A DNA stretch of 64,000 nucleotides from Candidatus Omnitrophota bacterium (lineage in GTDB: Bacteria; Omnitrophota; Gorgyraeia; Zapsychrales; Aceulaceae), in NCBI GenBank assembly GCA_028693815.1, contig JAQUUP010000002.1, positions 74,807 to 138,806 of the forward strand, written 5' to 3'. The translations under genes were made by a program, and so were the position numbers. The first letter of the stretch is position 1, and every line of letters starts with the position of its first letter. Below, piece after piece: positions 17,060-63,676 of the stretch. The notes beneath the pieces were generated by a model, which worked only from the letters and a program-made list of their open reading frames with translations, ran no database searches and had not been told where the DNA came from.

Positions 17060-17078
17060 CCGGAGTTGGTGCTAAACA

Positions 17079-17964: not shown

Positions 17965-18013
17965 AAATAATCGCTCCTTTCTTTAGGCGCCAATATAGCA
18001 GAGAGATAAACGC

Positions 18014-36864: not shown

Positions 36865-36937
<73 letters not shown>

Positions 36938-36971
36938 CTTCTTGTTTTCTTTCTTTAAAATTTTTTAAGTG

Positions 36972-45199: not shown

Positions 45200-45348
45200 T
45201 TTAAAAAAAGCAGAGAAGTTTATCAAACCAAAAATGATTTAAGGCAAAGATAAATAAATATAATAAAGTTAATCTTGTGTCTATTTATTTATTTTTAATG
45301 TTATAATATTTTTAACAAAATATTGATAATTATTAACTAAGACCCTCT

Positions 45349-46512
45349 ATGCATGATTTTATTTTTGATTTAAGTGTTGTTTTAGTAGGCACCGGGATTC
45401 TGTCAATCTTAGCGGTTCTTTTGCGTCAGCCGATCATTGTAGGTTATATTCTCTGTGGGGTTATCCTTGGTCCCTGGGGATTAGGGCTTATCAAAGAAGT
45501 CAACTTTATTCAGGCTATATCCCATTTAGGCATCACACTTCTTTTGTTTTTAGCAGGTCTTTGTTTGCACCCTCAACATTTATTCAAACTTTTTAAGCGT
45601 ACAGGAGTTGTTACCATTACCAACTGCGCGCTGTCTTTTTTGATAGCATTTTTATTTTCGTTTTTTATGAGATTTTCTTTTACCGATAGCGTCTGGATTG
45701 GAATTGCGTTAATGTTTTCCAGCACGATTCTCACGGTTAAACTTCTTCCGACGACAAAGTTGCATCAAGAGAGAATTGGGGCGGTGTGCATTAGTATTTT
45801 GATTTTTCAAGATTTGATTGCTGTTGGGGCTTTAGCATTCTTGCGTGGGACGTATAATCAAAGTCTTGCGATTGAGAACACCGGATGGCTTTTGTTTAAG
45901 CTTGTTTTGTTGATTGCTGCTGCATTTTTGTTTGAACGTTTTGCTTTGCGTAAAACATTAAAGAAAATTGATCATTTGCACGAAGCGATTTTTATAACTG
46001 GGTTAGCCTGGTGTTTTGGAGTCGCTGCGATCTCTAATCGCATGGGGCTTTTTTATGAGACAGGTGCCTTTTTTGCTGGAGTGGCATTAGCCCAACATCC
46101 TATTGCTCGATTTATTGCTGATAAATTAAGACCTTTGCGTGATTTTTTTCTTGTGTTATTTTTCTTTGCTTTAGGTGCAGAATTTAATCTATCGATTATT
46201 TCGAAACTTTTTATTCCGGCGTTTATTCTCGCGTTTGTCTTTATTATTTCTAAACCGTATATTTTTAAAAGAATGCTGATGCTTTCAGGAGAACAAAAGT
46301 CTTTTGCAACCGAAGCCGGCATTCGCTTAGGTCAATTGAGCGAGTTTTCTCTTCTGGTGTCGCTTTTAGCATTGAGCATTCACCATATCAGCATAGAAGC
46401 TTCCCAATTCATTCAGCTTGTCACCATCATCACTTTTGTTGTCTCAAGTTATTACGTTGTTTATCGGTATAAAACACCGATCGGCACAACACAAAAAATG
46501 TTTAAAGACTAA
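45349..46512 (+). CDS. Cation:proton antiporter (CPA1/CPA2 family).
   Basis: Na_H_Exchanger-type N-terminus ...LRQPIIVGYILCGVILGPWGLGLI...; 12 TM, no KTN domain. Confidence 0.75.
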   Translation: MHDFIFDLSVVLVGTGILSILAVLLRQPIIVGYILCGVILGPWGLGLIKEVNFIQAISHLGITLLLFLAGLCLHPQHLFKLFKRTGVVTITNCALSFLIAFLFSFFMRFSFTDSVWIGIALMFSSTILTVKLLPTTKLHQERIGAVCISILIFQDLIAVGALAFLRGTYNQSLAIENTGWLLFKLVLLIAAAFLFERFALRKTLKKIDHLHEAIFITGLAWCFGVAAISNRMGLFYETGAFFAGVALAQHPIARFIADKLRPLRDFFLVLFFFALGAEFNLSIISKLFIPAFILAFVFIISKPYIFKRMLMLSGEQKSFATEAGIRLGQLSEFSLLVSLLALSIHHISIEASQFIQLVTIITFVVSSYYVVYRYKTPIGTTQKMFKD

Positions 46513-46548
46513 TAGGGTTATTGTTCAAAATTTTCAAAATATTTTTAT

Positions 46549-46597
46549 TTGACAAATGGGTCTGCTTGTTCTATACTTGGTAATGATAATCATTATC
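46549..46597 (+). promoter_or_regulatory. Sigma70 promoter TTGACA-17-TATACT immediately followed by a near-consensus Fur box (AATGATAATCATTATC, 46582..46597).
   Basis: Matches the classical 19-bp Fur box GATAATGATAATCATTATC at 16 of 16 overlapping positions. Confidence 0.75.
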
Positions 46598-46614
46598 AAT
46601 AAGGAGGATATTTT

Positions 46615-47073
46615 ATGCGGGGCCAAAGTGAAGGATGCTGGCGAGGACGATTTCAAGGCGGAGGGTTTCGCTTTACAAGGCCAAGGGAATTTATTCTAGA
46701 TGTTCTTGCTAAGGCAAAGGGACATTTGAGCGCAGAAGATATTTTTTTGTTGGTTCATAAGACATATCCAAACATAGGGCTAACAACCGTATATCGCAAT
46801 TTAGAGCTTTTAGTTGAAATGGGAGCGGTGACCAGGCTTCATTTTGGAAATGGTAAGGCGAGTTATGAGCTTTTAAGGGGAGGAAAAAACGAACACCACC
46901 ATCATTTGGTCTGTCGAAAATGCTCTAAGATTATTGATTATGCAGATTTTATGGACGAAGAAAAAGAATTTTTACAAAAGGTTGAAAAAGGATTAAGTCA
47001 AAAATATAAATTTGAAATTCAAGACCATACCATTCACTTTCATGGTCTTTGTGAGAAATGCCAGATAGGATGA
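46615..47073 (+). CDS. fur: Fur-family metalloregulator (Fur/Zur/PerR).
   Basis: RFTRPREFILDVL winged helix; HHHLVCRKCSKII...HGLCEKCQ metal sites. Confidence 0.85.
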   Translation: MRGQSEGCWRGRFQGGGFRFTRPREFILDVLAKAKGHLSAEDIFLLVHKTYPNIGLTTVYRNLELLVEMGAVTRLHFGNGKASYELLRGGKNEHHHHLVCRKCSKIIDYADFMDEEKEFLQKVEKGLSQKYKFEIQDHTIHFHGLCEKCQIG

Positions 47074-47140
47074 TTACAGAAACCCCTAAGTCGCTTTAAA
47101 AGCGCTTTTGGGGTAAAGTTAAAAAATTGAAACAGTAAAA

Positions 47141-47219
47141 CCCTTAACGTTACACGTTAAGGGTAAATTCTCACGTATGATTTACGGAATATTAGTGACG
47201 TAAATCATGTGTTCATTAG
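47141..47219 (+). promoter_or_regulatory. Leader element copy C1. Hairpin cccttaacg-ttaca-cgttaaggg, then GGGTAAATTC, then hairpin tcacgtatgatttacg...cgtaaatcatgtg, then TTCATTAG.
   Basis: Read directly. A degenerate GGGGTAAAGTT lies at 47110. Confidence 0.55.
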
Positions 47220-47312
47220 CTCCGACGCACTTCGGGCGCGGAGTAAATTCGCAGCTCTAAGTTACGTTCACTAGCGTTCCGTAACTTAACTGCTCATTTA
47301 AAGGAGGGTAAA
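47220..47312 (+). promoter_or_regulatory. Leader element copy C2. Hairpin ctccgacgc...ggcgcggag, then GGAGTAAATTC, then hairpin gcagctctaagttacg...gtaacttaactgc, then TCATTTAAAGGAGGG, then ATG.
   Basis: Read directly. The most canonical copy. Confidence 0.6.
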
Positions 47313-47657
47313 ATGCCAGCAAGAGACGGAAGTGGCCCACAAGGAATGGGGCAAATGACAGGATGGGGAATGGGAAATTGTGTTGTCGAAAATCCAAATA
47401 ATGTGCAAATGAGGCAGCCTCAGGGCGTGATGGGTAGGGGCACTGGGTCTGGCCGAGGCCTTGGAAGAGGCCTTGGAAGAGGCCTTGGAAGAGGCCTTGG
47501 AAGAGGGCTTGGTTTAGGTCGAGGTTTTGCTTGGAGAGCTCAGCAACCTCAAGGCAATGTGTCTGTTTCAGGTGTTGAGGATTTAAAGCAGCAGGCTAAA
47601 ATATTAGAGCAAGAGCTTGCTTTTGTAAAAAAGCAAATTCAGGATTCGAATCAATAG
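47313..47657 (+). CDS. DUF5320-like small protein. N-terminus MPARDGSGPQGMGQMTGWGMGNC, a (GRGL)n repeat, and a C-terminal coiled coil.
   Basis: Recalled DUF5320 N-terminal pattern MPRGDGTGPxGxGPMTGRG and typical neighbours (Nitro_FeMo-Co, MinD-ferredoxin). From memory only. Confidence 0.45.
   Translation: MPARDGSGPQGMGQMTGWGMGNCVVENPNNVQMRQPQGVMGRGTGSGRGLGRGLGRGLGRGLGRGLGLGRGFAWRAQQPQGNVSVSGVEDLKQQAKILEQELAFVKKQIQDSNQ
47457..47515 (+). repeat. 12-nt tandem repeat (gccttggaagag) x about 5, encoding GRGLGRGLGRGLGRGLGRGL.
   Basis: Exact tandem DNA copies inside the CDS. Confidence 0.85.
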
Positions 47658-47684
47658 TTAACAAATCTTTAAAAGGAGAGTGTA

Positions 47685-48068
47685 TTGAGAGTTGCAATAT
47701 CAACAGAAGGAGATCGTGTTTCTCCTCATTTTGGACGTTGTCCTAGCTTTACTTTAGTTGAAATTAAAGACAATGAGTTGGTTAGTCAGGAGTCTATTGA
47801 AAATCCAGGTCATCATCCAGGTTTTTTGCCTGAATTTCTTGGAAACAAAGGTGTTAATTGTATTATTGCTGGAGGCATGGGGCAAAGGGCTCGTGAGCTT
47901 TTTTTAGCAAAGAATATAAAGCCAATTTTAGGCGTTGATCTTTCTATTGAAAAAACAATTGAAGGATTCTTGCAAAATAGCCTTGAAAGCGATGATAGTC
48001 CTTGTATTCCTCGCTCTGGGAAGGGTTATGGTCTCGATAAAACAGAATGTGATCACGCGGATGAATAA
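47685..48068 (+). CDS. Nitro_FeMo-Co (NifX/NafY/NifB C-terminal-domain-like) protein with a Cys-containing C-terminal extension. TTG start.
   Basis: MRVAISTEGDRVSPHFGRCPSFTLVEI...GVNCIIAGGMGQRARELF. Confidence 0.7.
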   Translation: MRVAISTEGDRVSPHFGRCPSFTLVEIKDNELVSQESIENPGHHPGFLPEFLGNKGVNCIIAGGMGQRARELFLAKNIKPILGVDLSIEKTIEGFLQNSLESDDSPCIPRSGKGYGLDKTECDHADE

Positions 48069-48105
48069 AAGATAAAAATTTAAGGATTTCGATATGTATG
48101 CGCGT

Positions 48106-48192
48106 GGGATAAATTCATATAGGTTGATTTGACGTTCGTCGTTGAGAATTTTAGTCACCTCGTAAGTCAGATATTTATTTAAGGAGAGAATT
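48106..48192 (+). promoter_or_regulatory. Leader element copy D (most degenerate). GGGATAAATTC, then an imperfect hairpin ending ...cgtaagtcagatat, then TTATTTAAGGAGAG.
   Basis: Read directly. Confidence 0.45.
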
Positions 48193-48555
48193 ATGAAAGT
48201 TTGCGTAACATCACAAGGGGTAAGCTTAGAATCAGCTGTTGATCCAAGATTTGGGCGTGCACAATATTTTCTTATTGTGGATACTGATTCATTAGAATTT
48301 GAAGTGCTTGAGAATGCTAATGCTGCTGGCACTGGAGGGGTTGGCGTTTTATCTGGAAGACTGATGGCAGATAAAGGTGTTGAATGTGTTTTGACAGGAA
48401 ATATTGGTCCTAATGCGAGCGAGACTTTGAATGCTGCTGGGATCAAGTTTTGTCTAGGTGCCACAGGCTCTGTTAAAGAGGCTGTTGAGAAATACAAAGA
48501 AGGTAATTTTTCTATTACGCAAGATCCTAATGTTGAATCAAAATCTGGAGCTTAA
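48193..48555 (+). CDS. Nitro_FeMo-Co (NifX-like) domain protein.
   Basis: MKVCVTSQG...DPRFGRAQYFLIVD...GVECVLTGNIGPNASETLNAAGIKF. Confidence 0.75.
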   Translation: MKVCVTSQGVSLESAVDPRFGRAQYFLIVDTDSLEFEVLENANAAGTGGVGVLSGRLMADKGVECVLTGNIGPNASETLNAAGIKFCLGATGSVKEAVEKYKEGNFSITQDPNVESKSGA

Positions 48556-48556
48556 A

Positions 48557-49177
48557 GTGAGTGTTGCTACAAAAGATTTAATACAAGATTTCTTAAAGAG
48601 AAGCAAAATTTATGAGCGTTTTGGATACGATATTATTAAAGAGCGTGATTTGATTATTTCTAAGACTGAACCTATTGGTAAAAAAATCCTGGAAGTTGGC
48701 ACTGGCAAAGGATATTTTACGATGGCTTTAGCTGCACAGGGATATCATTTTACCAGTGTTGACATTTCTCTTGAGGAGCAGGAGTTTGCCAAAGACAATC
48801 TTAAGGCTCTTGGGCTTACGCGAAAAGTTAAATTTGGTATTGAGGATGCTTGCAATTTTACTTTTGATCCTAAAAGTTTTGATTGCATTTTTTGCATCAA
48901 TACTTTCCATCATATTAAAAGTTGTTTTGATGTGACGAGTGAATTTGTCCGCCTGTGTAAAGAAAACGGAAAAATTGTTATTAGTGATTTTAATGAAACG
49001 GGCTTGAAGGTTGTTTCTGATATTCATAAAAAAGAAGGGAATATTCACAAGGCTTTTGATGTTCCATGGATTGAAATGAAAAGATTTTTTAATCGAGCAG
49101 GATTTAAAGTTCAAATGATAAGCACTAAAAATCAAAAAACTTTGGTTGCAACAAAAGAGACAGGAAGAAAATCGTGA
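48557..49177 (+). CDS. Class I SAM-dependent methyltransferase. Start set at GTG 48557, 2 nt after the upstream stop, with GGAG at -9 to -6.
   Basis: ILEVGTGKGYFTMALAAQGYHFTSVDIS (motif I), DCIFCINTFHH (motif II-like). Confidence 0.7.
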   Translation: MSVATKDLIQDFLKRSKIYERFGYDIIKERDLIISKTEPIGKKILEVGTGKGYFTMALAAQGYHFTSVDISLEEQEFAKDNLKALGLTRKVKFGIEDACNFTFDPKSFDCIFCINTFHHIKSCFDVTSEFVRLCKENGKIVISDFNETGLKVVSDIHKKEGNIHKAFDVPWIEMKRFFNRAGFKVQMISTKNQKTLVATKETGRKS

Positions 49178-50013
49178 TTGTTTCAATTGCAAGTGGCAAA
49201 GGGGGAACAGGCAAAACGACGGTGGCAACAAATCTTGCTTCTGTCTTAGGAATTTCTTGCCAGCTTTTAGATTGTGATGTTGAAGAGCCAAATGCACATC
49301 TTTTTTTAGATCCTGTTATAAATCAGGAAAATAAGGTTTTTACTCTTGTTCCTAAAGTTGATGCTGAAAAATGCAAGTTGTGCGGAAGGTGTCAAGAGGT
49401 GTGTGCCTATAATGCGATTGCTGTTTTCGGTAAGAAGCATCTTGTTTTTTCTGCTTTGTGTCATGGTTGCGGAGCTTGTCAATATTTTTGTCCTCATAAG
49501 GCGATTAGTGAAGAGAAAAAAGAAATAGGAATTGTTCAAAAGGGGACAAAGAATCACCTTGAGATTATTACGGGTAAGATGAAAATAGGGGAGGCCATGG
49601 CTCCGCCGGTTATCAGAGAAGTAAAAAAATATATTAAAAAAGATTTCATAACGATTATTGATGCCCCTCCAGGAACAAGTTGTCCTGTGATTGAGTCTGT
49701 AAAAGGAAGCGATTATTCAGTTTTGGTTACAGAGCCAACGCCGTTTGGATTAAACGATTTAAAGCTTGGCGTTGAAGTTTTGCGCAAATTAAAGATTCCG
49801 TTTGGCGTTATTATTAATCGGTTTGATTTAGGAAACGATAAGACGATTCAGTATTGCGAAAATCAAGATATCGATATTTTAATGAAAATTCCTTTTGATA
49901 GGGAAATTGCTAGAGTTTATTCGAAAGGTTCGCTGATTATCGACGAGATTCCATCATATCGACAGAAGTTTTTAGAATTGTGGGAAAGTATTAAAATAAA
50001 GGCGAGAAAATGA
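49174..50013 (+). CDS. MinD/ParA-superfamily P-loop ATPase with an inserted 2x[4Fe-4S] ferredoxin domain (COG1149-type).
   Basis: SGKGGTGKTT Walker A; CKLCGRCQEVC and CHGCGACQYFC clusters. Confidence 0.8.
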   Translation: MIVSIASGKGGTGKTTVATNLASVLGISCQLLDCDVEEPNAHLFLDPVINQENKVFTLVPKVDAEKCKLCGRCQEVCAYNAIAVFGKKHLVFSALCHGCGACQYFCPHKAISEEKKEIGIVQKGTKNHLEIITGKMKIGEAMAPPVIREVKKYIKKDFITIIDAPPGTSCPVIESVKGSDYSVLVTEPTPFGLNDLKLGVEVLRKLKIPFGVIINRFDLGNDKTIQYCENQDIDILMKIPFDREIARVYSKGSLIIDEIPSYRQKFLELWESIKIKARK

Positions 50014-50891
50014 AGCAAATTTTAATCATTAGTGGAAAAGGCGGAACAGGAAAGACAGTCGTGACTGCTGCTTTTGCCTCGTTAGCTGAGAATAAAATTC
50101 TGGTTGATTGTGATGTTGATGCTGCTAATTTGCATTTGATATTAAATCCTGAAAGTCAGGAAGTTCATGAGTTTAGAAGCGGAAAGACTGCTTTTATTAG
50201 CAAGGATCAATGCTGTTCGTGTGGGTTATGTCAAAGTTTATGCCGTTTTGAGGCGATCAAAAAAGATACTTTGAGTGATAAATTTCTTATTGATTCTGTT
50301 TCCTGTGAAGGATGTGGTTTTTGTGCGTTGGCTTGTCCATCTGGTGCTATTGAAATGAAAGAAAATTTGTCGGGTCAATGGTTTGTTTCCAATACTCGTT
50401 TTGGTTTATTTGTTCATGCCAAGCTTGGAATCGCTGAAGAAAATTCTGGAAAGCTTGTTGCAACGGTTAAGCAAAAAGCAAAAGAATTGGCCAAGAAGAA
50501 TAATGTGGATTGGATTATTGTTGATGGTTCTCCCGGAATAGGTTGCCCGGTGATCGCTTCTTTGTCTGATGTTGATTGCGCAATTATTGTTTCTGAGCCT
50601 ACGGTTTCAGGGATTCATGATGCTAAAAGGGTTATGGAGGTTGCAGATCATTTTAAGGTTCCAGTAAAAATGATTATTAATAAGTTTGATTTAAATGAAG
50701 ACATGACAAAGAAGATTGAAATGTTTTCTTTAGAATCAAATATTGAGGTTATTGGAAAAATTCCTTTTGACAAAAGAATTGTTGAATCTGTTTCGCAGGG
50801 AAAAACAGTGATTGAGAATGGTAATCAAGATTTAATAAAGTGCTTTTCTGAAATTTGGGAGAGAGTAAAAAAGGGATTTTTTGCTTTATAA
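50010..50891 (+). CDS. Second MinD/ParA-type ATPase with an inserted 4Fe-4S ferredoxin domain (paralogue of 49174..50013).
   Basis: SGKGGTGKTV; CCSCGLCQSLC and CEGCGFCALAC. 4-nt overlap with the upstream gene. Confidence 0.8.
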   Translation: MKQILIISGKGGTGKTVVTAAFASLAENKILVDCDVDAANLHLILNPESQEVHEFRSGKTAFISKDQCCSCGLCQSLCRFEAIKKDTLSDKFLIDSVSCEGCGFCALACPSGAIEMKENLSGQWFVSNTRFGLFVHAKLGIAEENSGKLVATVKQKAKELAKKNNVDWIIVDGSPGIGCPVIASLSDVDCAIIVSEPTVSGIHDAKRVMEVADHFKVPVKMIINKFDLNEDMTKKIEMFSLESNIEVIGKIPFDKRIVESVSQGKTVIENGNQDLIKCFSEIWERVKKGFFAL

Positions 50892-50902
50892 GAGGTGGTG
50901 TT

Positions 50903-51091
50903 ATGAAGAAAGAAAAGAAAGCAAATAGTTTAAAGATCAAACAAGCTTATGGTGTTGGCCCGTCGGATGATTGTGATTGTAAAATATGTGTTTTTACAAA
51001 ATCACATGCTCCGGGAGATAGCTATGATGTAAAAAAATGCCCAAAGTATAATATTGAGAAAAACAAGAATGATACTCAGTCAAACAATTAA
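50903..51091 (+). CDS. Small Cys-rich protein (62 aa; CDCKIC...C).
   Basis: ORF with SD GAGGTGG upstream. No recognisable family. Confidence 0.35.
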   Translation: MKKEKKANSLKIKQAYGVGPSDDCDCKICVFTKSHAPGDSYDVKKCPKYNIEKNKNDTQSNN

Positions 51092-51821
51092 AAAGATTTA
51101 CAAGAATCTTTATGATCTTAAATTTCTAGATCAAAATATAAAGATTTGCGCAAAGGTTTTGTCGCCGCAAGAAGCGATTGGAAATCCTGAAAAATACGAT
51201 TTTCCATTGTTTAAAGGAAAAGAAAGAATTGTTGAGGCAAATTTTCGTGGATGCTTGGGCCATGCTTTTACAGACATGCACGGCGGTTTTGAAGGAAGCT
51301 TAAAAGAAATTCTTGAAATGCCTTCTAATAATAATTATCGTAGGGCTTTGCAAGTGGCAACCATTAATGCGTTGTGCCGATTTTTAGGGGAGACCCATAA
51401 TACGGTTCATTGTCGTGACGAAGAGCCTCAGCAATGCGCCGAGGAATCGGTGTTATTAATTAAGAAAGAATATCCGCGGGTAAGAAAGATTTGTTTTGTT
51501 GGTTTTCAGCCCGCTTTTGTGGATGCATTTTCCAAGCAATATGATCTTAAAGTTTTAGATTTAGATCAAGACAATATAGGAAAAGTTTTTTTTGGTCAGA
51601 AAATATTAGACGGAAACAAGGATTTGATTTCATCGTTGGATTGGGCAGACCTTGTTTTGGCAACAGGTTCAACAGTTGTTAACGCAACGATTGATTCTAT
51701 TTTAGAGGCTAAAGATAAGAAAAAGGTTATTTTTTATGGTGTGACCATCGCTGGCGTTGCGGCAATGATGCAGCTAAACCGTTTGTGTTTCGCCAAGGAG
51801 AATAAATGTTGTTGTTTTTAA
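51069..51821 (+). CDS. DUF364-like Rossmann-fold protein (putative metal-chelation/cofactor family).
   Basis: Recalled pattern of PF04016 proteins, including the C-terminal ADLVLATGSTVVNATIDSIL. ATG 51069 preferred over the TTG at 51054. Confidence 0.4.
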   Translation: MILSQTIKKIYKNLYDLKFLDQNIKICAKVLSPQEAIGNPEKYDFPLFKGKERIVEANFRGCLGHAFTDMHGGFEGSLKEILEMPSNNNYRRALQVATINALCRFLGETHNTVHCRDEEPQQCAEESVLLIKKEYPRVRKICFVGFQPAFVDAFSKQYDLKVLDLDQDNIGKVFFGQKILDGNKDLISSLDWADLVLATGSTVVNATIDSILEAKDKKKVIFYGVTIAGVAAMMQLNRLCFAKENKCCCF

Positions 51822-52591
51822 GTGTTTTTTTAATTGCTCTTATTTTCTCGATGTTTGGTTTAGGGGGCGGGCTTTTTTATATGCCGGTGTTTATGTTTTT
51901 CTTAGGAGATCCTGTTCAAGCGGCATTCTTAAGCTTTTTGTGTATTTTTGTCACTGCGGGATCTTCAGCTATACAGTATTTGAAATTTAAAAAGATTGAT
52001 TGGAAGCTCGTTGTTTTCTTGGGATTCCCACTTATTGCTATGGTTTTTGTATCCGGTTTTATGATCGGACTTGTAAACCCGGGACAAACTAAATTTATTT
52101 TAGGCTTAACGCTTATTTTAGCTGGACTTTCGTTGTGCTTTCCTGTTGGGACGTTAAATACGCTTAGCGCTTTTTCGAGGTATTTTCATAAGAAAATTCC
52201 TTTAGAGAAATCGAATTTTGATCCGCTTACAATATCTCCTTTGGCGGCTTTCGTTGGATTTTTTTGCGGTCTTTCCGGGGTAGCCGGGGGTGTTTTTGAA
52301 GTGCCGATGATGATTGGGCTTTTACGGGTTTCGCCTCATATGGCGGTAGGAACATCCTCTATGATTGTTTTTTTGTCAGGTCTGCTGGGGTTTGTTAGCC
52401 GTATATCGGCTGTCACGGCAGAACATTTGCTTGATTTTTCAACTGTCATCGGTGTTTTAGCGTGTGTTTTTATTGGCGCACAAATCGGGCCTGCTGTTTC
52501 TGTAGGAATCGATAAAAAAATATTTAAAAGAATATGCGGTGTTTTTATTCTTCTTATAGGATTGTGCTATATATTTAAGATTATTTTTTAA
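51806..52591 (+). CDS. TauE/SafE (TSUP) family membrane exporter.
   Basis: Two 4-TM repeats with the GLGGGLFYMPV and GVAGGVFEVPM motifs. Confidence 0.7.
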   Translation: MLLFLSVFLIALIFSMFGLGGGLFYMPVFMFFLGDPVQAAFLSFLCIFVTAGSSAIQYLKFKKIDWKLVVFLGFPLIAMVFVSGFMIGLVNPGQTKFILGLTLILAGLSLCFPVGTLNTLSAFSRYFHKKIPLEKSNFDPLTISPLAAFVGFFCGLSGVAGGVFEVPMMIGLLRVSPHMAVGTSSMIVFLSGLLGFVSRISAVTAEHLLDFSTVIGVLACVFIGAQIGPAVSVGIDKKIFKRICGVFILLIGLCYIFKIIF

Positions 52592-52600
52592 GGAGCTTAG

Positions 52601-53488
52601 ATGCTGACATACAAAGAATGCGTTCCGTGTTTTATTCGGCAAATCGATGAAGCCGCTTATCTTGTGACAAAAGACAAGGCAATACAAGAACAAATTATTA
52701 AAGAGGCCAGAGGTTTGATTGAGAGCATTGATTTTTCTATGCCGCCACCTCAAATGGCTCAAAATATTTATCGAATGATCGAAAGGAAAATGGGCCGTCA
52801 AGATCCTTATTATCAAATTAAAAAGAAAAGCAATGCCATGGCGTTATCTCTTTACTCAAGGCTAAAAGAAAAGGTCAAAAAATCTTCTGATCGGCTTTTA
52901 ACAGCTTTAGAGATTGCCATATCTGGAAATATTATTGATTATGGGGCAAAAAATTCTTTAGACATTGAAAAAGAAATTGATAATCTTTTTACAAAAGATT
53001 TTTCTGATGAGGATAAAATAGTTTTTCAGTATGAGAAATTTAAAAGTGATCTAGCGGAAACAGATGAAATTCTTTATTTGGCTGATAATGCGGGAGAGGT
53101 GGTTTTTGATAGGATTTTAATTGAAGAGCTATCGAAGACAAAGAAAATAACATATGTTGTTCGAGAAAAGCCGATTATTAATGATGCTTTGATAGAGGAC
53201 GCACTGGAATGCGGCATTGATAAAATTGCTAAAGTGATTTCAAGTGGATCAGATGCGCCTGGAACAATTTTAGGTGAGTGTGATCCTCAATTTGTTGATA
53301 TGTTCAATAAATCTAATTTAATTATAAGTAAAGGTCAGGGAAACTATGAAACGCTTAGTGCATTAGAGAGTCACTTGATTTATTTTCTTTTTAAAGCTAA
53401 GTGCCCTGTTGTGGCAAGAAATGCTGGTGTTTCTGTTGGGAATATTGTTTTAATGAGTTCTTTTTGTCAGATGAGGGCGAAGGCTTAA
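52601..53488 (+). CDS. DUF89 (ARMT1-like) metal-dependent damage-control phosphatase family.
   Basis: N-terminal CVPCF (CxPC) motif and LADNAGEVVFD. Confidence 0.55.
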   Translation: MLTYKECVPCFIRQIDEAAYLVTKDKAIQEQIIKEARGLIESIDFSMPPPQMAQNIYRMIERKMGRQDPYYQIKKKSNAMALSLYSRLKEKVKKSSDRLLTALEIAISGNIIDYGAKNSLDIEKEIDNLFTKDFSDEDKIVFQYEKFKSDLAETDEILYLADNAGEVVFDRILIEELSKTKKITYVVREKPIINDALIEDALECGIDKIAKVISSGSDAPGTILGECDPQFVDMFNKSNLIISKGQGNYETLSALESHLIYFLFKAKCPVVARNAGVSVGNIVLMSSFCQMRAKA

Positions 53489-53489
53489 C

Positions 53490-53681
53490 ATGAATAAAAT
53501 CGTAATTATTGATGAAGAAAATTGTATTGGTTGCTCTGCTTGCGTTGATTTGTGCCTGGAGAAAATACTTTATTTAGATAAAGATTCGGGCAAATGCAAA
53601 GTCATTGATGAAAACAAATGCGACAAACTTGCTGGTTGTCAGAATGTGTGTCCAACAAAAGCGATTAAGATATGCAAATAA
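53490..53681 (+). CDS. 2x[4Fe-4S] ferredoxin.
   Basis: CIGCSACVDLC ... CDKLAGCQNVCP. Confidence 0.75.
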   Translation: MNKIVIIDEENCIGCSACVDLCLEKILYLDKDSGKCKVIDENKCDKLAGCQNVCPTKAIKICK

Positions 53682-54385
53682 GAATTCTTTTTGATAATCA
53701 AAGTATTAATTCTAGTTTTCAGTCGGGCTTGGGATTTTCTTGTCTTTTAGGGGATGATGTATTGTTTGATACGGGTGCAGATGGTTTGAGTCTAGAAAGA
53801 AATATTCAGGCCTTTGGTGTTGATGTTTCTTTGATCAAACATATTGTTATTTCGCATGACCATTGGGATCATATTGGAGGGCTTTGGTGGGTTTTGGAAA
53901 AAATAGAAAACGCCACTGTTTATATCTGCCCTGGTTTTTCACATGAATTCATTAACAAACTTGAGTCTACCAACGCTAATATTGTTGAGTGTGTGAGTCC
54001 TTTGCCAATTACAGATCGCATTTGGACGACCGGGCAGATAGAGGGGCGATACAAAGATCAGGCTATTTTTGAGCAGTCTATTGTTTTAAGGGGAAATCAA
54101 AATATTAGCGTTGTTACCGGATGTGCCCATCCAGGCATTGTTGAAATCTTAAGGGAGATAAAAAGTTCATTTCCAAAAGATTCGATCGATTTTGTTTTGG
54201 GTGGTTTTCACCTTTTGCACCATTTCAAAAATGATATTAATGTCATTATAAAAGAATTTCAAGCCCTCGACGTTAAGCGTGCTGGTCCAGCTCATTGCAC
54301 GGGAGGATCCGCGCAGAATCTTTTTAAAGAATCCTATCAGGAAAACTGCCTCGATCTTAGAGCGGGTAGCAGAATAGCCGTCTAA
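53672..54385 (+). CDS. MBL-fold metallo-hydrolase.
   Basis: HDHWDHIGG (HxHxDH) motif. Confidence 0.7.
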   Translation: MQIRILFDNQSINSSFQSGLGFSCLLGDDVLFDTGADGLSLERNIQAFGVDVSLIKHIVISHDHWDHIGGLWWVLEKIENATVYICPGFSHEFINKLESTNANIVECVSPLPITDRIWTTGQIEGRYKDQAIFEQSIVLRGNQNISVVTGCAHPGIVEILREIKSSFPKDSIDFVLGGFHLLHHFKNDINVIIKEFQALDVKRAGPAHCTGGSAQNLFKESYQENCLDLRAGSRIAV

Positions 54386-54404
54386 CCATTCAAAAATCGT
54401 TTTA

Positions 54405-54468
54405 TTGACAAAAAAATTTTTTTTGTTAGAATACTCAAGATACTAATTGAGTATTCTTGAGTATTATT
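54405..54468 (+). promoter_or_regulatory. Sigma70 promoter TTGACA-16-TAGAAT overlapping a 10-bp inverted repeat AGAATACTCA-N9-TGAGTATTCT, with a third half-site TGAGTATTAT. Likely the TetR autoregulatory operator.
   Basis: Perfect palindrome arms at 54429..54438 and 54448..54457. Confidence 0.7.
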
Positions 54469-54488
54469 AAGAAAGGAGTGTTTTTCTC

Positions 54489-55064
54489 ATGAATAAGAAT
54501 ACAATAAAGCAAAAAGTTTTAGATGCTGCCAAAGCGCGCATGATTCGATTTGGATATCGAAAAACATCTATGGATGAAATCGCATCAGATTTAAAAATGA
54601 GCAAGAACACAATCTATAAGTTTTTTCAAAGCAAGGCTGAAATTGCCCAAAATCTTTTTGTCCGGCTAAAAGAAAGTATTAACCTCGAGCAAACCGCGAT
54701 CGAGCAAAAAGAAAAAGACCCTCTAAGGATTATTGCGGCCAATACGTTATTTTTGCAGGAATCTTTGTCTCCTTGGTTTGATCATTTCTTGCTGGATATC
54801 AAAAGCGAGCTGCCAACGCTTTGGTCAGATTTTGTTACGTTTCGAACAGAGAAGATTATGGATGTTGAAAAGCTGATTAAAAAGGGGATTAAAAAGAAAG
54901 AATTTCGAAGTGTTAACACTGCCATCGCGGTGCGTGCTTATTTGGGAGCCATTAACAGTATTATTAATCCTGAGTTTTTATCCAGCGATAAGATTTCCTT
55001 TAAAGAAGCCTTGGAAAGCGTTTTGGATATTTGGTCTAAAGGGATTCTCGCTGTTAAAAAATAA
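54489..55064 (+). CDS. TetR/AcrR-family transcriptional regulator.
   Basis: N-terminal HTH RFGYRKTSMDEIASDLKMSKNTIYKFFQSK. Confidence 0.85.
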   Translation: MNKNTIKQKVLDAAKARMIRFGYRKTSMDEIASDLKMSKNTIYKFFQSKAEIAQNLFVRLKESINLEQTAIEQKEKDPLRIIAANTLFLQESLSPWFDHFLLDIKSELPTLWSDFVTFRTEKIMDVEKLIKKGIKKKEFRSVNTAIAVRAYLGAINSIINPEFLSSDKISFKEALESVLDIWSKGILAVKK

Positions 55065-55094
55065 ATAATTAAAAAAATAAATGAGGAGGTTTTT

Positions 55095-56561
55095 ATGAAG
55101 GCGTTATTTTTAACACCCAATTTAGGATCATGGGCCACCCATGGGCATCATGTGGCCCCTAATCAAATGCACGCGCATTGGGCGGCTTATGCCAGAGAAA
55201 AAGGAACCATTGTCCCTGAAGTTTTGGACTGCAAAGCCCTTGAGATTTCTTTTGATCAGATGCTTGATACCGTTAAACAAAAGAATCCGCAGGTTGTTGT
55301 TTTAGGGGACATTCTTCATTCTTATGGAGGGTTTGCGGTTCAGAAATATTTTAATGATTCGGCTAAAGCGATTAAAGCGATGCTCCCGAATGTCGTGATT
55401 GTTGTTGGCGGACTTTGGTATTCTTATCTTAGCAAAGAAACGCTAATCAAGAATCCGGCTATTGATTTTGTTGTGATGGGCGAAGGGGAGATTACTTTTA
55501 ATGAACTAATGGATGCGTTAAATCAAAAAAAGACATCATTTGATAGCATTTCAGGACTTGCAAGCCGTAAAGGTGATGAAGTTGTTTTCGGTCCGATTCG
55601 AGAATTAATTAAAGACTTGGATGTTTTGCCGCTTCCGGCCTATGATTTGTTTCCTATGGATAAATATATAGGACACACCTATTGGAAGCCTTTTGTTGAA
55701 ATTGTTACCTCGCGTGGATGCACTCATGGATGCACGTTTTGCTATGAATGGAGTGAGCATGATCCTAGAGCGCTTAAACATTTTAATCGATGGCGTGCAA
55801 AATCTGCAAAGCGTGTTATTGAAGAGGTAGAATTACTTGAGAAAAAGTTTGGCGCTAAGGTCATGGTGATTCAGGAAGATAATTTTAATCTTAATCCTAC
55901 GCGTGTGCGTGAATTCTGCGAAGAAAAGATTAAAAGAAATTTAGACATGAAATGGGTCTCCTTAGGTTGTGCCAGTGATTGGGTGCGTTTGGAAAAAGAT
56001 ATTCCTTTAATGAAAAAAGCAGGAATGTTTATGGCGGTATTTGGCATTGAGGTTGCCAGTGATGATGAGTTGCGTAAGCTCGATAAAGGGATTTCTGTTT
56101 ATCAGATTTACAAAACAATCGAGATTTTACGAAAAAACGATATTGCTATCGTTGGCGATATTATGATCGGGTTTGATTATGATACGGAAGCCATTATCAA
56201 AAAACGCTTTGAGTTTGCTGATCAGGTTGATCCTGACGTGATGTGGGTCGGATATTTAACGCCTCCTCCTGGGTCTCCTATTTGGGCAGACGGCATTAAA
56301 AGAGGATGGATTGATCCTGATAATCTTGATATGCTTCAATGGGATTTTCTTCATCCTGTTATTCCAACAGATCATCTAAGCATTGAAGATTTAGGACGAT
56401 TGGGCGCATGGGGTATGAGAGAGTTTTATTCGAAGCCTGGACGCATTCAAAGAATCTTAATGAGTGATTTTGATGAACTAGCCAAATTGTGCTTTAAAGA
56501 TGTTATGGCAGGAATCTCTAAGTGGGAAAATGCCGCGACCAAGGGAGAAAAACATGTTTAA
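55095..56561 (+). CDS. B12-binding-domain radical SAM enzyme.
   Basis: N-terminal B12-binding Rossmann fold; CTHGCTFCYEW (CxxxCxxC). Confidence 0.85.
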   Translation: MKALFLTPNLGSWATHGHHVAPNQMHAHWAAYAREKGTIVPEVLDCKALEISFDQMLDTVKQKNPQVVVLGDILHSYGGFAVQKYFNDSAKAIKAMLPNVVIVVGGLWYSYLSKETLIKNPAIDFVVMGEGEITFNELMDALNQKKTSFDSISGLASRKGDEVVFGPIRELIKDLDVLPLPAYDLFPMDKYIGHTYWKPFVEIVTSRGCTHGCTFCYEWSEHDPRALKHFNRWRAKSAKRVIEEVELLEKKFGAKVMVIQEDNFNLNPTRVREFCEEKIKRNLDMKWVSLGCASDWVRLEKDIPLMKKAGMFMAVFGIEVASDDELRKLDKGISVYQIYKTIEILRKNDIAIVGDIMIGFDYDTEAIIKKRFEFADQVDPDVMWVGYLTPPPGSPIWADGIKRGWIDPDNLDMLQWDFLHPVIPTDHLSIEDLGRLGAWGMREFYSKPGRIQRILMSDFDELAKLCFKDVMAGISKWENAATKGEKHV

Positions 56562-56566
56562 TTTTC

Positions 56567-57547
56567 TTAGTTTTGATCTTGGGAGTTGTCTGGTTTTGTG
56601 TTTTTCATTAAATCTGAAAAATCAATGGTGATGATTTTTCCTGCGGAGGCAGGTTTTTCTTTTGGAAGCGTGCTTTGAATTGCATTGATTTGTTTTTTTG
56701 AGAATGTGATTTCGCTATTTGCGCGCAAATCAGTAAGCACTACAGAAGAGAAGTCTTCAAAACCGTAGGCATGAATGGTTTTGACAACAGCGTCTAGAAT
56801 CTCGTCAGCAACATTTTTGTCTGGCGGAAAATCGCTATTTTGAAATTTAAAATTAATGCGCGTTGTTACTTGCTTAGCAATAAAATCTTTGATGTCAATA
56901 TCTTTGTATTCGATGTGCGTGCCTTTAGCGTCACCTTTAATTGCTTCATCGCCAGATGGTTCAGTTTGGATGCGAAGGGTGTATTCGTCTGGAGGAAGTG
57001 CTCCTGCCTGATATTTCTTAAGGTCTTCAGTATAAAATGTTGTCGTAGTTTTAAGCCCATCTTTAATATTGGCAACAACAAGAACAATAAATTTTGGCGG
57101 ATTTTCAGCCTTAAAGAATACGCGCGAAATAGCTGTGGTGACATTTCGATATTTAGTATTAAATTCTTTAGAATATTGTGTAGACATGCCATTGCCGGAA
57201 GAAAGTTTTGTGGCTTCAACGATGTCGTATTCGATTTTCAAATCGTTATTGTCAAAAATACTATCAATGTATTGAAGAGTGTATTTTTTCTTTACAGGCT
57301 TTGTTGATTTTTTGCCACCTGCAATAGAATAAAGAGGATTCTCGTCTGGAACATAAATCCAGAATGTATCGCCTGTCCAGGTTATAACAGAAGAAAGATC
57401 ATAATCGTTTTCTAAAATTTGCTCGATTTTTTCTTTAGCCTCGATTCGGGAGAGAGGCTGTTCTTCCTTTTTGGAAGAACAGCCCATCAAGCCTGCTAAC
57501 CAGAAAACAATTAATATCCAACAAAATTTCTTTGAGTATTTTGTCAT
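56567..57547 (-). CDS. Lipoprotein, hypothetical.
   Basis: Signal peptide with lipobox LMGC. Confidence 0.6.
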   Translation of the reverse strand: MTKYSKKFCWILIVFWLAGLMGCSSKKEEQPLSRIEAKEKIEQILENDYDLSSVITWTGDTFWIYVPDENPLYSIAGGKKSTKPVKKKYTLQYIDSIFDNNDLKIEYDIVEATKLSSGNGMSTQYSKEFNTKYRNVTTAISRVFFKAENPPKFIVLVVANIKDGLKTTTTFYTEDLKKYQAGALPPDEYTLRIQTEPSGDEAIKGDAKGTHIEYKDIDIKDFIAKQVTTRINFKFQNSDFPPDKNVADEILDAVVKTIHAYGFEDFSSVVLTDLRANSEITFSKKQINAIQSTLPKEKPASAGKIITIDFSDLMKNTKPDNSQDQN

Positions 57548-61394: not shown

Positions 61395-62028
61395 CAATAA
61401 TGGATACAAAGCTCAAATCAGACATTGCAGAATCTGCGGTTATTTTGAAGCTCCTCGAAAAAGGGTTTAATGTTCTAAAGCCTTTTGGTGATCGTCTTGC
61501 CTATGATCTTGCTATAGATCAAGAAGGACGATTAATTCGCATTCAAGTTAAAAGTGCATGGTATAGCAAAGATAAGAAAATGCATTTAGTGGATGCAAGG
61601 AGAACAAAAACAAACCGACGCAAAATGATTCGAAAGAAATATTCGAATCAAGATTTTGATTTTGCAATAATCTATCTTAGCGATAAGCAGGTTTTTTATA
61701 TTATGCCTGTAGAGGTTTTTAATAACTATGCTAGTAGCATTAGTTTTGTCGAGGAAGGTAAGCGGCAACGACCTCCAAAGTCAGCTAAATTTAGAGAGAG
61801 ATGGGATTTGTTGTCCTTTTGTGGGCTGCTAGTCCAGTAATGGATTAGTGAAACCTGTCAAATTCGGTGAAACCTTAACTGGCAATACCGAGCCAAGCCT
61901 AGCAGGAATGCTAGGAAGGTGTAGAGACTAGATGGCAGGCATCCTAACTCATCGAGAAGGATGAAGGTATAGTCCAGACCACAAACCTTGACCTAATGTT
62001 AGGGGCGGCGAAAGCCGTAGTTGGCAAG
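61395..62028 (+). mobile_element. Group I self-splicing intron (IC3-like) in the anticodon loop of tRNA-fMet, carrying an ORF.
   Basis: 3' part 61853..62028 contains GUCAAAUUCGGUGAAACCUUAA, CCGAGCCAAGC and GAAGGUGUAGAGACUAGAUGGCAGGCAUCCUAA, near-identical to the core P3-P7 strings of the Azoarcus tRNA-Ile and Anabaena tRNA-Leu introns. Ends in G; upstream exon ends in U. Confidence 0.85.
61400..61840 (+). CDS. Intron-encoded ORF of 146 aa, a putative PD-(D/E)xK homing endonuclease (I-Ssp6803I-like).
   Basis: YDLAID ... RIQVKS nuclease-like motifs. Same host gene as the PD-(D/E)xK homing endonuclease of the cyanobacterial tRNA-fMet intron. Starts 5 nt inside the intron. Confidence 0.55.
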   Translation: MDTKLKSDIAESAVILKLLEKGFNVLKPFGDRLAYDLAIDQEGRLIRIQVKSAWYSKDKKMHLVDARRTKTNRRKMIRKKYSNQDFDFAIIYLSDKQVFYIMPVEVFNNYASSISFVEEGKRQRPPKSAKFRERWDLLSFCGLLVQ

Positions 62029-62204: not shown

Positions 62205-62327
62205 AATAAGTTAGAATAAGTTAAATAAGTTAGACCGTTTCTACTTAATAAGTTAGACCGTTTCTACTTTACCCCTAGCCTTATATTAATAAGTTAGACC
62301 GTTTCTACTTTACCCCTAGCCTTATAT
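62205..62327 (+). repeat. Iteron-like direct repeats. AATAAGTTAG x3 at about 10-nt period, then three copies of AATAAGTTAGACCGTTTCTACTT, the last two extended to a 41-nt unit (...TACCCCTAGCCTTATAT).
   Basis: Copies at 62205, 62215, 62224; 62224..62246, 62247..62287, 62288..62327. Confidence 0.8.
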
Positions 62328-63468: not shown

Positions 63469-63536
63469 AGTGGTGTCCCCAAACGGGGACTGTCCCCTTT
63501 TTCGTGGTGTCCCCAAACGGGGACTGTCCCCTTTTT
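63469..63536. terminator. Tandemly duplicated 34-nt intrinsic terminator (gtggtgtccccaaacggggactgtcccctttttc x2).
   Basis: Stem ggggac/gtcccc plus T-run, present as an exact duplicate. Confidence 0.65.
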
Positions 63537-63676
63537 CTTTTTCTTTTTTTCTTTTCCTGCTGACGTTTCTGCGAGATTCCGTGCTCATTGGAGATCGCTA
63601 CCCATGCCATTTTTTAATTCTAAAAGATTTTCTCAAAGTTTTTTGCTATGCTAAAATGTTGAAAAAGGAGAAGGTG

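Follow-up and report, generated by a model that had tools for sequence, protein, structure and literature searches.

A predicted Fur-family-controlled, orange-protein-type gene cluster in Candidatus Omnitrophota with a probable role in handling iron-sulfur clusters

Introduction

A 64,000-nt stretch of DNA from a Candidatus Omnitrophota bacterium (the window) contains a run of closely spaced genes for a Fur-family regulator, a DUF5320 protein, two proteins of the PF02579 (Nitro_FeMo-Co) family, two MinD-type ATPases with inserted ferredoxin domains and a series of less familiar proteins. Which of these genes belong together, and what do they do? The question is of some weight, since the acquisition, storage and delivery of iron-sulfur (Fe-S) clusters in strict anaerobes are poorly understood and the orange-protein (ORP) complex, to which several of the encoded proteins are related, has been without an agreed function since 2011. 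A sequence-only reading had taken the genes as a single metallocluster-handling module of 15 members in one or two operons, with either the trafficking of an Fe-S-derived cofactor or a radical-SAM/B12-dependent methylation pathway as its candidate role (SAM, S-adenosylmethionine). The genes fall into two transcription units that are not parts of a single module. Unit 1 (46549-54385) extends from fur as far as a metallo-β-lactamase-fold (MBL) hydrolase, and probably, although with an appreciable margin of doubt, represents an ORP-type system that is controlled by a Fur-family protein, is induced by stress and traffics or repairs Fe-S or other metal-sulfide clusters. Unit 2 (54405-56561) appears to be a neighbouring pair of its own.

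Materials and methods

Protein families were called with Pfam-A at gathering score, and NCBIfam models added finer detail. Gene neighbourhoods were compared in two samples, one of 80 genome loci anchored on the COG1149 ATPase and one of 80 metagenome loci anchored on DUF364; loci of relatives are designated by L-numbers. The first-pass iterated hidden Markov models (HMMs) were contaminated: that for the ferredoxin had picked up the inserts of the ATPases, and those for NifX and DUF5320 had merged through fusion proteins and MrpORP. Single-sequence phmmer was therefore used to classify the loci anew, with Pfam as a check on key calls. HMM-based DUF5320 tallies over the 80 COG1149 loci are lower bounds; a motif count gives 25 of 80. 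Fur boxes were searched with the 7-1-7 consensus TGATAATnATTATCA. Families, transcription units, the Fur box, the cross-phylum arrangement, the genes added in relatives and two gene fusions were computed here, and the formation of the ORP complex, cluster transfer by MrpORP and cluster binding by PF02579 proteins are taken from the literature.

A predicted Fur-headed operon

Unit 1 is preceded by the sigma-70 promoter TTGACA-17-TATACT (46549-46577), which agrees with the consensus at 11 of 12 positions. A Fur box (TGATAATCATTATCA, 46584-46598) directly follows the -10 hexamer and ends 17 nt before the start codon of fur, with the ribosome-binding site in between; it is the sole perfect match to the Fur-box consensus in the whole window. 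Behind this control region follow, in this order, fur, DUF5320, the two PF02579 genes, a methyltransferase gene, the two MinD-ferredoxin ATPase genes, and the genes for a small Cys-rich protein, DUF364, TauE, DUF89, a ferredoxin and the MBL hydrolase. A consensus scan of 46400-56800 yielded only two promoters with a score of 11/12, one before fur and one before tetR, and terminator-like sites were no commoner there than in shuffled sequence (9 found versus 7.6 ± 2.5 expected). The stop/start contacts reported earlier at 48555/48557, 49174/49177 (GTGA overlap), 50010/50013 (ATGA overlap) and 53672/53681 were all recovered, and further tight junctions lie at 51806/51821 and 53488/53490. As all long open reading frames (ORFs) between 114 and 56561 are on the plus strand, their shared direction is no evidence for an operon. 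The identical layout of promoter and box is kept in L002, L003, L005 and L006-L008, and Fur-box-like palindromes precede fur in 13 further loci. A single operon that is controlled by its own Fur-family product through this box is the best explanation of the predicted signals. The previously assumed number of 15 genes is reached only if fur is counted, since the list on which it was based comprises 14, and of the suggested one or two operons the latter number is the one that holds.

The first gene product combines a PF01475 domain with two CxxC pairs and a His-rich regulatory site, and in both PDB and NCBIfam it agrees best with Fur (107 and 134 bits, versus 66 and 77 bits for PerR). It is 38% identical to Bacillus subtilis Fur and 27% to PerR. 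Eight positions past the first Cys of the first CxxC pair, the window protein and five of its orthologues have an Asp residue. We take Glu at this position to mark Fur and Asp to mark PerR, and by this rule the window protein is not a strict Fur.

Orthologues with 47-78% identity head like clusters in several phyla. Twelve of the 80 COG1149 loci carry a co-directional fur immediately upstream as the first gene (gaps of 4-333 nt), most of them with a palindromic Fur-box-like site 20-40 nt before it; these loci originate from metagenome-assembled genomes (MAGs) labelled Omnitrophota, Planctomycetia, Clostridia, Atribacteria, Dehalococcoidales, Anaerolineales and Aminicenantales. Reverse look-ups from Fur homologues (Omnitrophota, WOR-3, Spirochaetes and one further contig) led to the head of a DUF5320-PF02579-PF02579 cluster in four of four cases. 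Altogether, clusters with fur at their head were encountered in Omnitrophota, WOR-3, Spirochaetes, Atribacteria, Aminicenantes, Clostridia and Chloroflexota. The cluster-associated proteins share an N-terminal extension (CWRGRFxGxGYRFT) and an insertion (DFMDEEKEFL). A second Fur paralogue is encoded directly upstream of the cluster fur in L172 (7564-8677), there beside a ferritin gene, and in L175 (8281-8721), where the operon runs on into genes for HypA, a DnaJ-domain protein and FeoAB (16602-18471). The presence of these second paralogues next door shows that the cluster-associated Fur is a specialised paralogue. The link to Fur, previously guessed from the proximity of its gene, is much stronger than assumed: fur itself opens the operon, a perfect Fur box stands ahead of it, and the same Fur subfamily heads such clusters in several phyla. 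Our literature searches found no report of this cross-phylum Fur linkage, and a search combining Fur with NifX-like terms returned nothing relevant.

A Fur-box-like site with two mismatches (TGATAATTATTAACT, 45324-45338) was also noted 11 nt before the start (45349) of the Na+/H+ exchanger gene located just upstream of fur.

Proteins of the conserved core

Pfam-A reproduced all of the families named by the sequence-only reading above gathering score, and the small Cys-rich ORF is the only cluster member without a family. The two PF02579 proteins, here NifX1 and NifX2, scored 75.3 and 83.7 bits against the Nitro_FeMo-Co model. NifX1 aligned to model positions 265-365 of NF041136 (E 7e-28), and compared with the published MrpORP motifs it reads SPHFGRCP for CxHFGHCE and NPGHHPGFLP for TPPPHxPGxxP, and contains CDH. 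NifX2 matched MTH1175 (E 7.6e-20), the D. gigas orange protein 2wfb over its full length (E 5.5e-18) and TM1290. Both carriers are acidic (pI 5.1 and 4.6) and have no cationic tail.

The DUF5320 family consists of three parts, an N-terminal motif ending in a near-invariant Cys, repeats of Gly, Arg and aromatic residues, and an amphipathic helix at the C-terminus. The window protein has MPxxDGxGPxGxGxMTGxGxGxC as its N-terminal motif, followed by five GRGL repeats and the helix. DUF5320 genes also occur in the cultivable Halothermothrix orenii, Caloranaerobacter ferrireducens, Thermanaerosceptrum fracticalcis and Neomoorella humiferrea. Its middle 60 residues include 18 Gly and 9 Arg and have a pI of 12; its homologues are rich in Trp, Tyr and Phe, whereas its own tail contains just two aromatic residues. 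In L061, a PF02579 domain (E 1e-26) is naturally fused to the repeat-and-helix part of DUF5320 (43.9 bits, above the gathering score), and L030 encodes a similar but weaker fusion. A comparable combination is known from IssA of Pyrococcus furiosus, a thioferrate-binding protein that joins a PF02579 domain to a Gly-rich tail, the tail being cationic and the thioferrate anionic (PMC5524996). The fusions, the pI of 12 as opposed to the acidic carriers and the likeness to IssA together support DUF5320 as a partner of the PF02579 carriers, a role that we infer. The literature searched contained no mention of the PF02579-DUF5320 fusion, and for DUF5320 itself it gave unrelated mentions only; a search on COG1149 and related terms led mainly to the IssA paper.

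Both ATPases contain the deviant Walker A motif SGKGGTGKT and two CxxCxxCxxxC motifs with the eight invariant Cys of the ferredoxin insert. The methyltransferase, whose start was corrected to GTG at 48557, has the length of its relatives and occupies the matching position in Omnitrophota relatives.

Besides these, the COG1149 ATPases (49174-50891) and their relatives share two further invariant Cys (Cys34 and Cys179), one in a DCDV motif near Walker A and the other in a CPV motif behind the switch region. Both residues are candidate ligands of a cluster bridging a dimer, as in NifH or Nbp35.

Conservation and company of the core

The nearest COG1149 loci are from Omnitrophota MAGs (59-63% identity). 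Two ATPases occur in 76 of the 80 COG1149 loci and PF02579 in 70, followed by Mrp/NBP35 (31), IscU-like proteins (25), MBL (18), a small radical SAM protein (14), DUF89 (13), the methyltransferase (12), a disulfide oxidoreductase (10), TauE (3) and DUF364 (0). The genes added to the operons of Omnitrophota relatives, confirmed with Pfam, encode PF10609 Mrp/NBP35 (E 1e-96), NifU_N/IscU, DsrE, Radical_SAM, Pyr_redox_2 and DnaJ proteins. The Mrp/NBP35 gene lies within the operon in L090 and L091; L006 additionally has peroxiredoxin and rubrerythrin, and one Fur-led relative cluster ends in FeoAB. Judged by family membership, the company of the core is that of Fe-S biogenesis together with sulfur and oxidant handling. 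A query with Mrp across the window retrieved nothing beyond the two COG1149 genes.

The expectation of a conserved co-occurrence was borne out for the genes from fur to MBL, which stay together in relatives even where their order is shuffled (L006, L089-L091, L094-L097, L110 and L172). In the DUF364-anchored sample, the nine closest loci (55-77% identity) retain TauE, DUF89, MBL, Fur, PF02579 and the ATPases beside DUF364, with a differing order in L094-L097, and the same set is kept in L110 (45% DUF364 identity) and L172. L089 is syntenic with the window on both sides, with GH26 and Na/H exchanger genes upstream and a 326-aa gene and FtsH downstream.

Table 1 Features of the two transcription units in the window
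Feature	Position	Strand	Evidence
Sigma-70 promoter and perfect 7-1-7 Fur box	46549..46598	+	Consensus scan, Fur-box search, conserved layout in relatives
Fur-family regulator, first gene of unit 1	46615..47073	+	PF01475, 112 bits
Structured spacer, 239 nt, with one full and two degenerate leader/repeat copies	47074..47312	+	Fold z = -6.0; alignment, consensus fold
DUF5320 protein	47313..47657	+	Pfam 56.7 bits; composition
PF02579 protein 1 (NifX1), stand-alone homologue of the MrpORP C-terminal 'Di-Nase' domain	47685..48068	+	Nitro_FeMo-Co; NF041136
PF02579 protein 2 (NifX2), orange-protein/MTH1175 type, acidic	48193..48555	+	Nitro_FeMo-Co; structure-sequence matches
Class-I SAM-dependent methyltransferase, 206 aa	48557..49177	+	Pfam 67.7 bits
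COG1149 MinD-type P-loop ATPase a with inserted 2x[4Fe-4S] ferredoxin (Orp3/Orp4-like)	49174..50013	+	Pfam CbiA/ParA, NCBIfam
COG1149 MinD-type P-loop ATPase b with inserted ferredoxin domain	50010..50891	+	Pfam CbiA/ParA, NCBIfam
Small Cys-rich protein (CxCxxC...C)	50903..51091	+	No family
DUF364 (PF04016) protein	51069..51821	+	42.6 bits vs cut-off 23
TauE/SafE-family anion permease	51806..52591	+	Pfam 135.6 bits
DUF89/ARMT1-type metal-dependent phosphatase (PF01937)	52601..53488	+	Pfam 246 bits vs cut-off 25
Small ferredoxin, 63 aa	53490..53681	+	Fer4
MBL-fold hydrolase, TM1679/7dck type, last gene of unit 1	53672..54385	+	Lactamase_B
Sigma-70 promoter TTGACA-16-TAGAAT with extended -10 TG, overlapping inverted repeat	54405..54457	+	Consensus scan; repeat search
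TetR-family regulator, unit 2	54489..55064	+	TetR_N
B12-binding radical SAM enzyme, unit 2	55095..56561	+	B12-binding and Radical_SAM

The neighbouring TetR and B12-radical SAM pair

The hexamers of the promoter before tetR span 54405-54432 and are overlapped by a perfect 11-bp inverted repeat (AGAATACTCAA-N8-TTGAGTATTCT), which is probably the TetR operator. The second gene of unit 2 encodes a class B radical SAM enzyme with an N-terminal B12-binding domain and the CxxxCxxC core CTHGCTFC. Its best models are BchE and HpnJ, both far under their cut-offs, and no NCBIfam equivalog was reached (BchE model 195 bits versus a cut-off of 481). Like the window, L091 has the pair, whereas L089 and L006 lack it at this site, between MBL and the downstream gene. 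Three other Omnitrophota genomes (L169-L171) encode the enzyme with TetR just upstream among unrelated neighbours, in one of them 400 kb off a Fur-led cluster, and it occurs in none of the 80 COG1149-anchored loci. The proposed membership of TetR and the B12-radical SAM enzyme in the module was hence rejected on account of their own promoter and operator, the absence from L089 and L006 and the unrelated contexts. Together with it falls the radical-SAM/B12 methylation pathway as a candidate function. Unit 2 is best regarded as a separate, self-regulated pair, predicted to be unrelated in function to unit 1. With 75-91% identity among dozens of Omnitrophota clusters, the B12-radical SAM gene is far more conserved than the ORP-type genes, and although it is removed here as a false lead for the cluster, it is in its own right an unusually conserved, TetR-guarded Omnitrophota gene.

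Accessory genes of unit 1

The start of the DUF364 gene was corrected to the ATG at 51069 (MILSQTIKK, conserved in L089 and L091), so that it overlaps the small Cys gene by 23 nt. In L006 the two are fused in one protein. A frameshift or pseudogene was considered for DUF364 and rejected, as the two reading frames overlap as separate genes, with the ATG of DUF364 conserved, and are joined only in L006. The N-terminal DUF4213 part of the DUF364 protein stayed below threshold (17.2 versus 23.5). A single DUF364 enzyme has been characterised. It cyclises 4''-methyl-SAM, the product of a B12-radical SAM enzyme, and genes of both families are found together in clusters of Streptomyces (PMC12930334); in Methanococcus, DUF364 is located inside modABC and shows cofitness with nifH (bioRxiv 10.1101/2024.03.05.583561). 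Neither lead is assignable to the window protein. Distant DUF364 relatives are instead found beside NitT/TauT-type ABC importers, IscU-like genes and MBL genes.

TauE directly follows DUF364 in L006, L089-L091, L093-L096 and L157. Its match to the NCBIfam model MamO (E 3.7e-6; cut-off 800 bits) reflects the shared TauE domain only and was discarded as evidence for a magnetosome function. The DUF89 protein did not reach the NCBIfam equivalog (190 bits versus a cut-off of 440). For the MBL subfamily (7DCK, TM1679, COG1237), a literature search found nothing. The sequence-only reading had described all of the families as known solely as uncharacterised accessories, which overstated the case: the core corresponds to the published ORP complex cluster, PF02579 includes IssA and MrpORP, DUF89 proteins are phosphatases and one DUF364 enzyme has been characterised.

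Some relatives carry a further gene for a P-loop protein of about 185 aa (AAA_21/SMC_N-like) between DUF89 and the ferredoxin (L089 10180-10743, L091 12431-12994, L095 16882-17430 and L006 17487-17966). It is absent from the window, where the DUF89 and ferredoxin genes are 1 nt apart.

The spacer behind fur and the leader motif

The leader motif in the spacer between fur and DUF5320 consists of a GC-rich hairpin, GG(A/G)GTAAATTCG, a second hairpin and GCTCATTTAAAGGAGG, followed by the start codon. Its UAAAU/AUUUA closing helix is conserved, and compensatory changes occur in 6 of 18 predicted pairs. Copies are located in the window at 398-500, 28300-28438, 30237-30362, 47136-47315 and 48090-48195, the last of them a degenerate copy (48090-48192) preceding the gene of NifX2. 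No Rfam family was found for the motif, neither at gathering score nor at E values up to 5. The motif had previously been noted as a leader of two cluster members. It does precede DUF5320 and the second NifX gene, but is not a mark of the cluster, as unrelated genes are also found behind it (e.g. a response regulator at 28436 and the sites at 30.3 kb and 0.4 kb). In the relatives L002-L008, only 13-20 nt separate the fur stop from the DUF5320 start and the motif is absent there; the 239-nt spacer of the window is hence an insertion. A cluster-specific signal was ruled out by the copies at unrelated genes and by the relatives that lack it at these positions, and the element is a genome-wide leader or repeat.

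Other features of the window

A giant ORF (114-6395, 2093 aa) contains internal repeats of 81 nt and 27/54 nt, and its first 629 residues have no Pfam match. As a copy of the leader motif sits in its annotated 5' end, the true start may lie further downstream. Two direct repeats of 66 nt (85% identical, 36961-37112) directly follow tRNA-Thr (36865-36938). A group I intron match (Rfam, 70.9 bits) covers 61805-62004, and the sequence directly downstream (ggtcgctggttcaaatccagtccccgcaacca) resembles a tRNA T-arm and 3' end; the region up to about 62072 therefore probably represents a tRNA gene split by an intron and missed by ARAGORN. The non-coding DNA in 62222-62326 and 63470-63537 contains exact tandem duplications, comprising a 41-nt unit in two copies (TTAATAAGTTAGACCGTTTCTACTTTACCCCTAGCCTTATA) and a 34-nt unit in two copies with a hairpin followed by a T-run (GTGGTGTCCCCAAACGGGGACTGTCCCCTTTTTC).

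Discussion

The clustering originally observed is confirmed, and its interpretation is partly supported, namely as far as a metal-linked, Fe-S-related role is concerned. Three leads emerge: in no fewer than seven phyla, a Fur-family gene of its own stands first in the operon of this core and would act on it directly; IscU, Mrp/NBP35, DsrE and FeoAB are written into the operons of relatives; and some genomes encode DUF5320 and the carrier domain in one chain, which recalls the thioferrate store IssA. From these and the literature we infer what induces the operon, which cargo it handles, how the ATPases cycle and what DUF5320 and the accessory block contribute, as follows. The metal-bound repressor would hold the operon off, and a drop in ferrous iron, possibly also an oxidant acting on the sensor, would lead to its expression. 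The paralogous MinD-ferredoxin ATPases, similar to Orp3 and Orp4, would constitute an ATP-driven, Fe-S-containing pair working with two small acidic PF02579 carriers, of which one resembles the orange protein and the other the cluster domain of MrpORP. The carriers are predicted to hold an anionic metal-sulfide cluster or precursor noncovalently, in the manner of NifX, NafY, ORP and IssA, and DUF5320 may provide a cationic Gly/Arg tail and a coiled coil partnering them. Under stress, this machine would deliver Fe-S-type clusters, salvage them or build them anew; its nearest functional parallel is the Fur-/OxyR-controlled suf operon of Escherichia coli. The second block (small Cys protein, DUF364, TauE, DUF89, ferredoxin and MBL, plus the methyltransferase) appears to be a lineage-specific accessory set, probably for a small molecule or anion.

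Several points weigh against this explanation. The Asp at the Fur/PerR position, together with peroxiredoxin and rubrerythrin in the operons of some relatives, means that the sensed signal may be an oxidant instead of iron. In this genome, transcription could also be attenuated or uncoupled by the 239-nt stretch that follows fur. With no Mrp/NBP35 P-loop gene, no IscU and no sulfur donor in the window, the operon alone could not build clusters de novo. Outside Omnitrophota the accessory block is seldom met with, as the counts for DUF364 (0/80) and TauE (3/80) among the COG1149 loci illustrate. The role of the Desulfovibrio ORP complex is itself debated, with cell division as a proposal, and its orange protein binds a Mo-Cu cluster, not an Fe-S cluster. 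Finally, the organism is uncultured, and the proteins of its lineage are known from their sequences alone.

The first of these points leads to the alternative that the same machine belongs to a peroxide or oxygen stress regulon, in which a PerR-like regulator is inactivated by metal-catalysed oxidation and the operon repairs oxidant-damaged Fe-S clusters in a strict anaerobe. We regard this as possible but less likely. The Asp residue occurs in all cluster-associated regulators compared, and peroxiredoxin, rubrerythrin and a pyridine-nucleotide disulfide oxidoreductase are encoded inside relatives' operons; however, the higher scores of the regulator against Fur than against PerR, an operator of the Bacillus Fur-type half-site and not of the PerR type and the FeoAB genes at the end of one relative's operon favour an iron signal. 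The second Fur paralogue near the cluster in two relatives, once by ferritin, shows specialisation of the regulator and not the signal it senses. A somewhat different use of iron would follow if the PF02579 proteins nucleated an anionic iron-sulfide polymer such as thioferrate, the DUF5320 repeats wrapped it in trans, the coiled coil built particles and the ATPases loaded and unloaded them, which would amount to a two-part, IssA-like iron-sulfur store or buffer. IssA has a like chemical architecture on a single chain (PMC5524996), and the natural PF02579-DUF5320 fusions, the Gly- and Arg-rich middle part of DUF5320 with its aromatic-rich homologues and the tie of the operon to a dedicated Fur paralogue agree with such a store. 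We nevertheless consider it rather unlikely: a Fur box over the promoter predicts expression at scarce iron, which is the wrong direction when IssA is made at abundant iron and sulfide, the DUF5320 tail in the window has only two aromatic residues, and IscU, Mrp and FeoAB in relatives suit trafficking better. That DUF5320 and the ORP-type PF02579 proteins act as a split, IssA-like holder of anionic iron-sulfide, charged and discharged by the MinD-ferredoxin ATPases and switched by the dedicated Fur paralogue, is a similarly doubtful proposition. Were it true, the holder would represent a widespread and so far unrecognised iron-sulfur buffering and delivery system of anaerobic bacteria, and the orange-protein complex would gain a function in the iron-sulfur economy instead of cell division.

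The remaining alternatives move away from Fe-S clusters. Handling of Mo or W thiometallates, with the orange-protein-type carrier binding Mo-Cu-S or W-S and with DUF364 and TauE moving or processing the oxyanion, is suggested by the [S2MoS2CuS2MoS2]3- cluster of the Desulfovibrio orange protein (PMC6345978) and the modABC context and nifH cofitness of DUF364 in Methanococcus (bioRxiv 10.1101/2024.03.05.583561). We judge it improbable, because Fur-family control and the IscU, Mrp and FeoAB neighbours point to iron, the Omnitrophota clusters examined contain no Mo/W transporter or pterin gene, and the ABC systems by distant DUF364 relatives have NMT1-type (NitT/TauT) and not ModA-type binding proteins. 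The synthesis and export of a SAM-derived metal chelator, or another B12/radical-SAM methylation, would unite DUF364, the methyltransferase, the B12-radical SAM enzyme and TauE; the one characterised DUF364 enzyme, which acts on the 4''-methyl-SAM product of a B12-radical SAM enzyme and whose family shares Streptomyces clusters with that of the latter (PMC12930334), would be its precedent, and Fur control and an adjoining permease would fit a metallophore. Against it stand the location of the B12-radical SAM gene in a separate TetR-controlled pair with unrelated contexts, 400 kb away in one genome, the retention of DUF364 without that gene at this site in L089 and L006, and the lack of non-ribosomal peptide synthetase, opine or nicotianamine-type genes, so that it has very little probability. 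The same holds for a role in cell division or positioning, with the MinD-like ATPases as spatial regulators. It was first proposed for the Desulfovibrio ORP complex: loss of orp expression causes shape defects in D. vulgaris and MrpORP locates at one cell pole (PMC6345978), and the orp regulon has been listed as 'cell division' (PMC4641369). The Fe-S domains of the ATPases, the neighbours over 80 loci, which are Fe-S biogenesis and not division genes, and Fur control make it hardly credible for the cluster described here. Trafficking or repair of Fe-S or metal-sulfide clusters under Fur-family control is thus the explanation that we prefer.

Comparison with known systems

The proteins NifX and NafY and the C-terminal domain of NifB share the PF02579 fold family and the noncovalent binding of complex anionic Fe-S cofactors with the carriers of unit 1. 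In contrast to these, no nitrogenase, nifEN or nifB genes are located near the window cluster, and the closest structural matches of its PF02579 proteins are the non-nif MTH1175, TM1290, TM1816 and ORP. The suf operon of E. coli resembles unit 1 in combining cluster-handling genes with a Fur-repressed promoter that is switched on by iron starvation and oxidative stress. This is a functional analogy only: the proteins are not homologous, and the window cluster has neither a SufBCD scaffold nor a cysteine desulfurase.

IssA and the window proteins have in common the combination of a PF02579/IPR003731 domain with a cationic, Gly-rich disordered segment. In IssA both are part of one chain, whereas in the window the cationic segment resides on the separate DUF5320 protein with its N-terminal Cys motif and coiled coil, and the PF02579 proteins have acidic ends and no cationic Gly- or aromatic-rich tail. 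Moreover, IssA is induced by sulfur and abundant iron, whereas the Fur box of the window predicts expression at low iron. Within the Mrp/NBP35/ApbC group, MrpORP shares its PF02579 'Di-Nase' domain with NifX1, which retains two and a half of the three published motifs; the first Cys of CxHFGHCE is a Ser in NifX1, and the window cluster has no Mrp/NBP35 P-loop gene.

The closest counterpart is the ORP complex cluster of D. vulgaris Hildenborough, which reportedly comprises orp1 (DVU2107-2109) and orp2 (DVU2103-2105). Orp3, Orp4, Orp5, Orp8 and Orp9 form a complex, and MrpORP (Orp9) transfers Fe-S clusters to Orp3 and Orp4 (PMC6345978). Both clusters encode two paralogous MinD-type ATPases with an inserted 2x[4Fe-4S] ferredoxin (Orp3/Orp4), a single-domain PF02579 orange-protein carrier (Orp8, corresponding to NifX2) and a second PF02579 protein, both are tightly organised in operons, and both are confined to anaerobes. 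In D. vulgaris the genes are arranged in two divergent operons that depend on sigma-54 (PMC4641369, PMC3897727), with IHF and a cognate enhancer-binding protein encoded between them, whereas the window has one co-directional operon with sigma-70 and a Fur-family repressor. MrpORP is an Mrp/NBP35 P-loop protein fused to PF02579, of which the window holds the PF02579 half alone, as a stand-alone protein (47685-48068). The window in turn adds DUF5320 as the first structural gene, and the methyltransferase, DUF364, TauE, DUF89, ferredoxin and MBL. By its predicted gene content and control region, unit 1 is therefore best described as an ORP-type cluster without the Mrp P-loop gene and under a different regulator.

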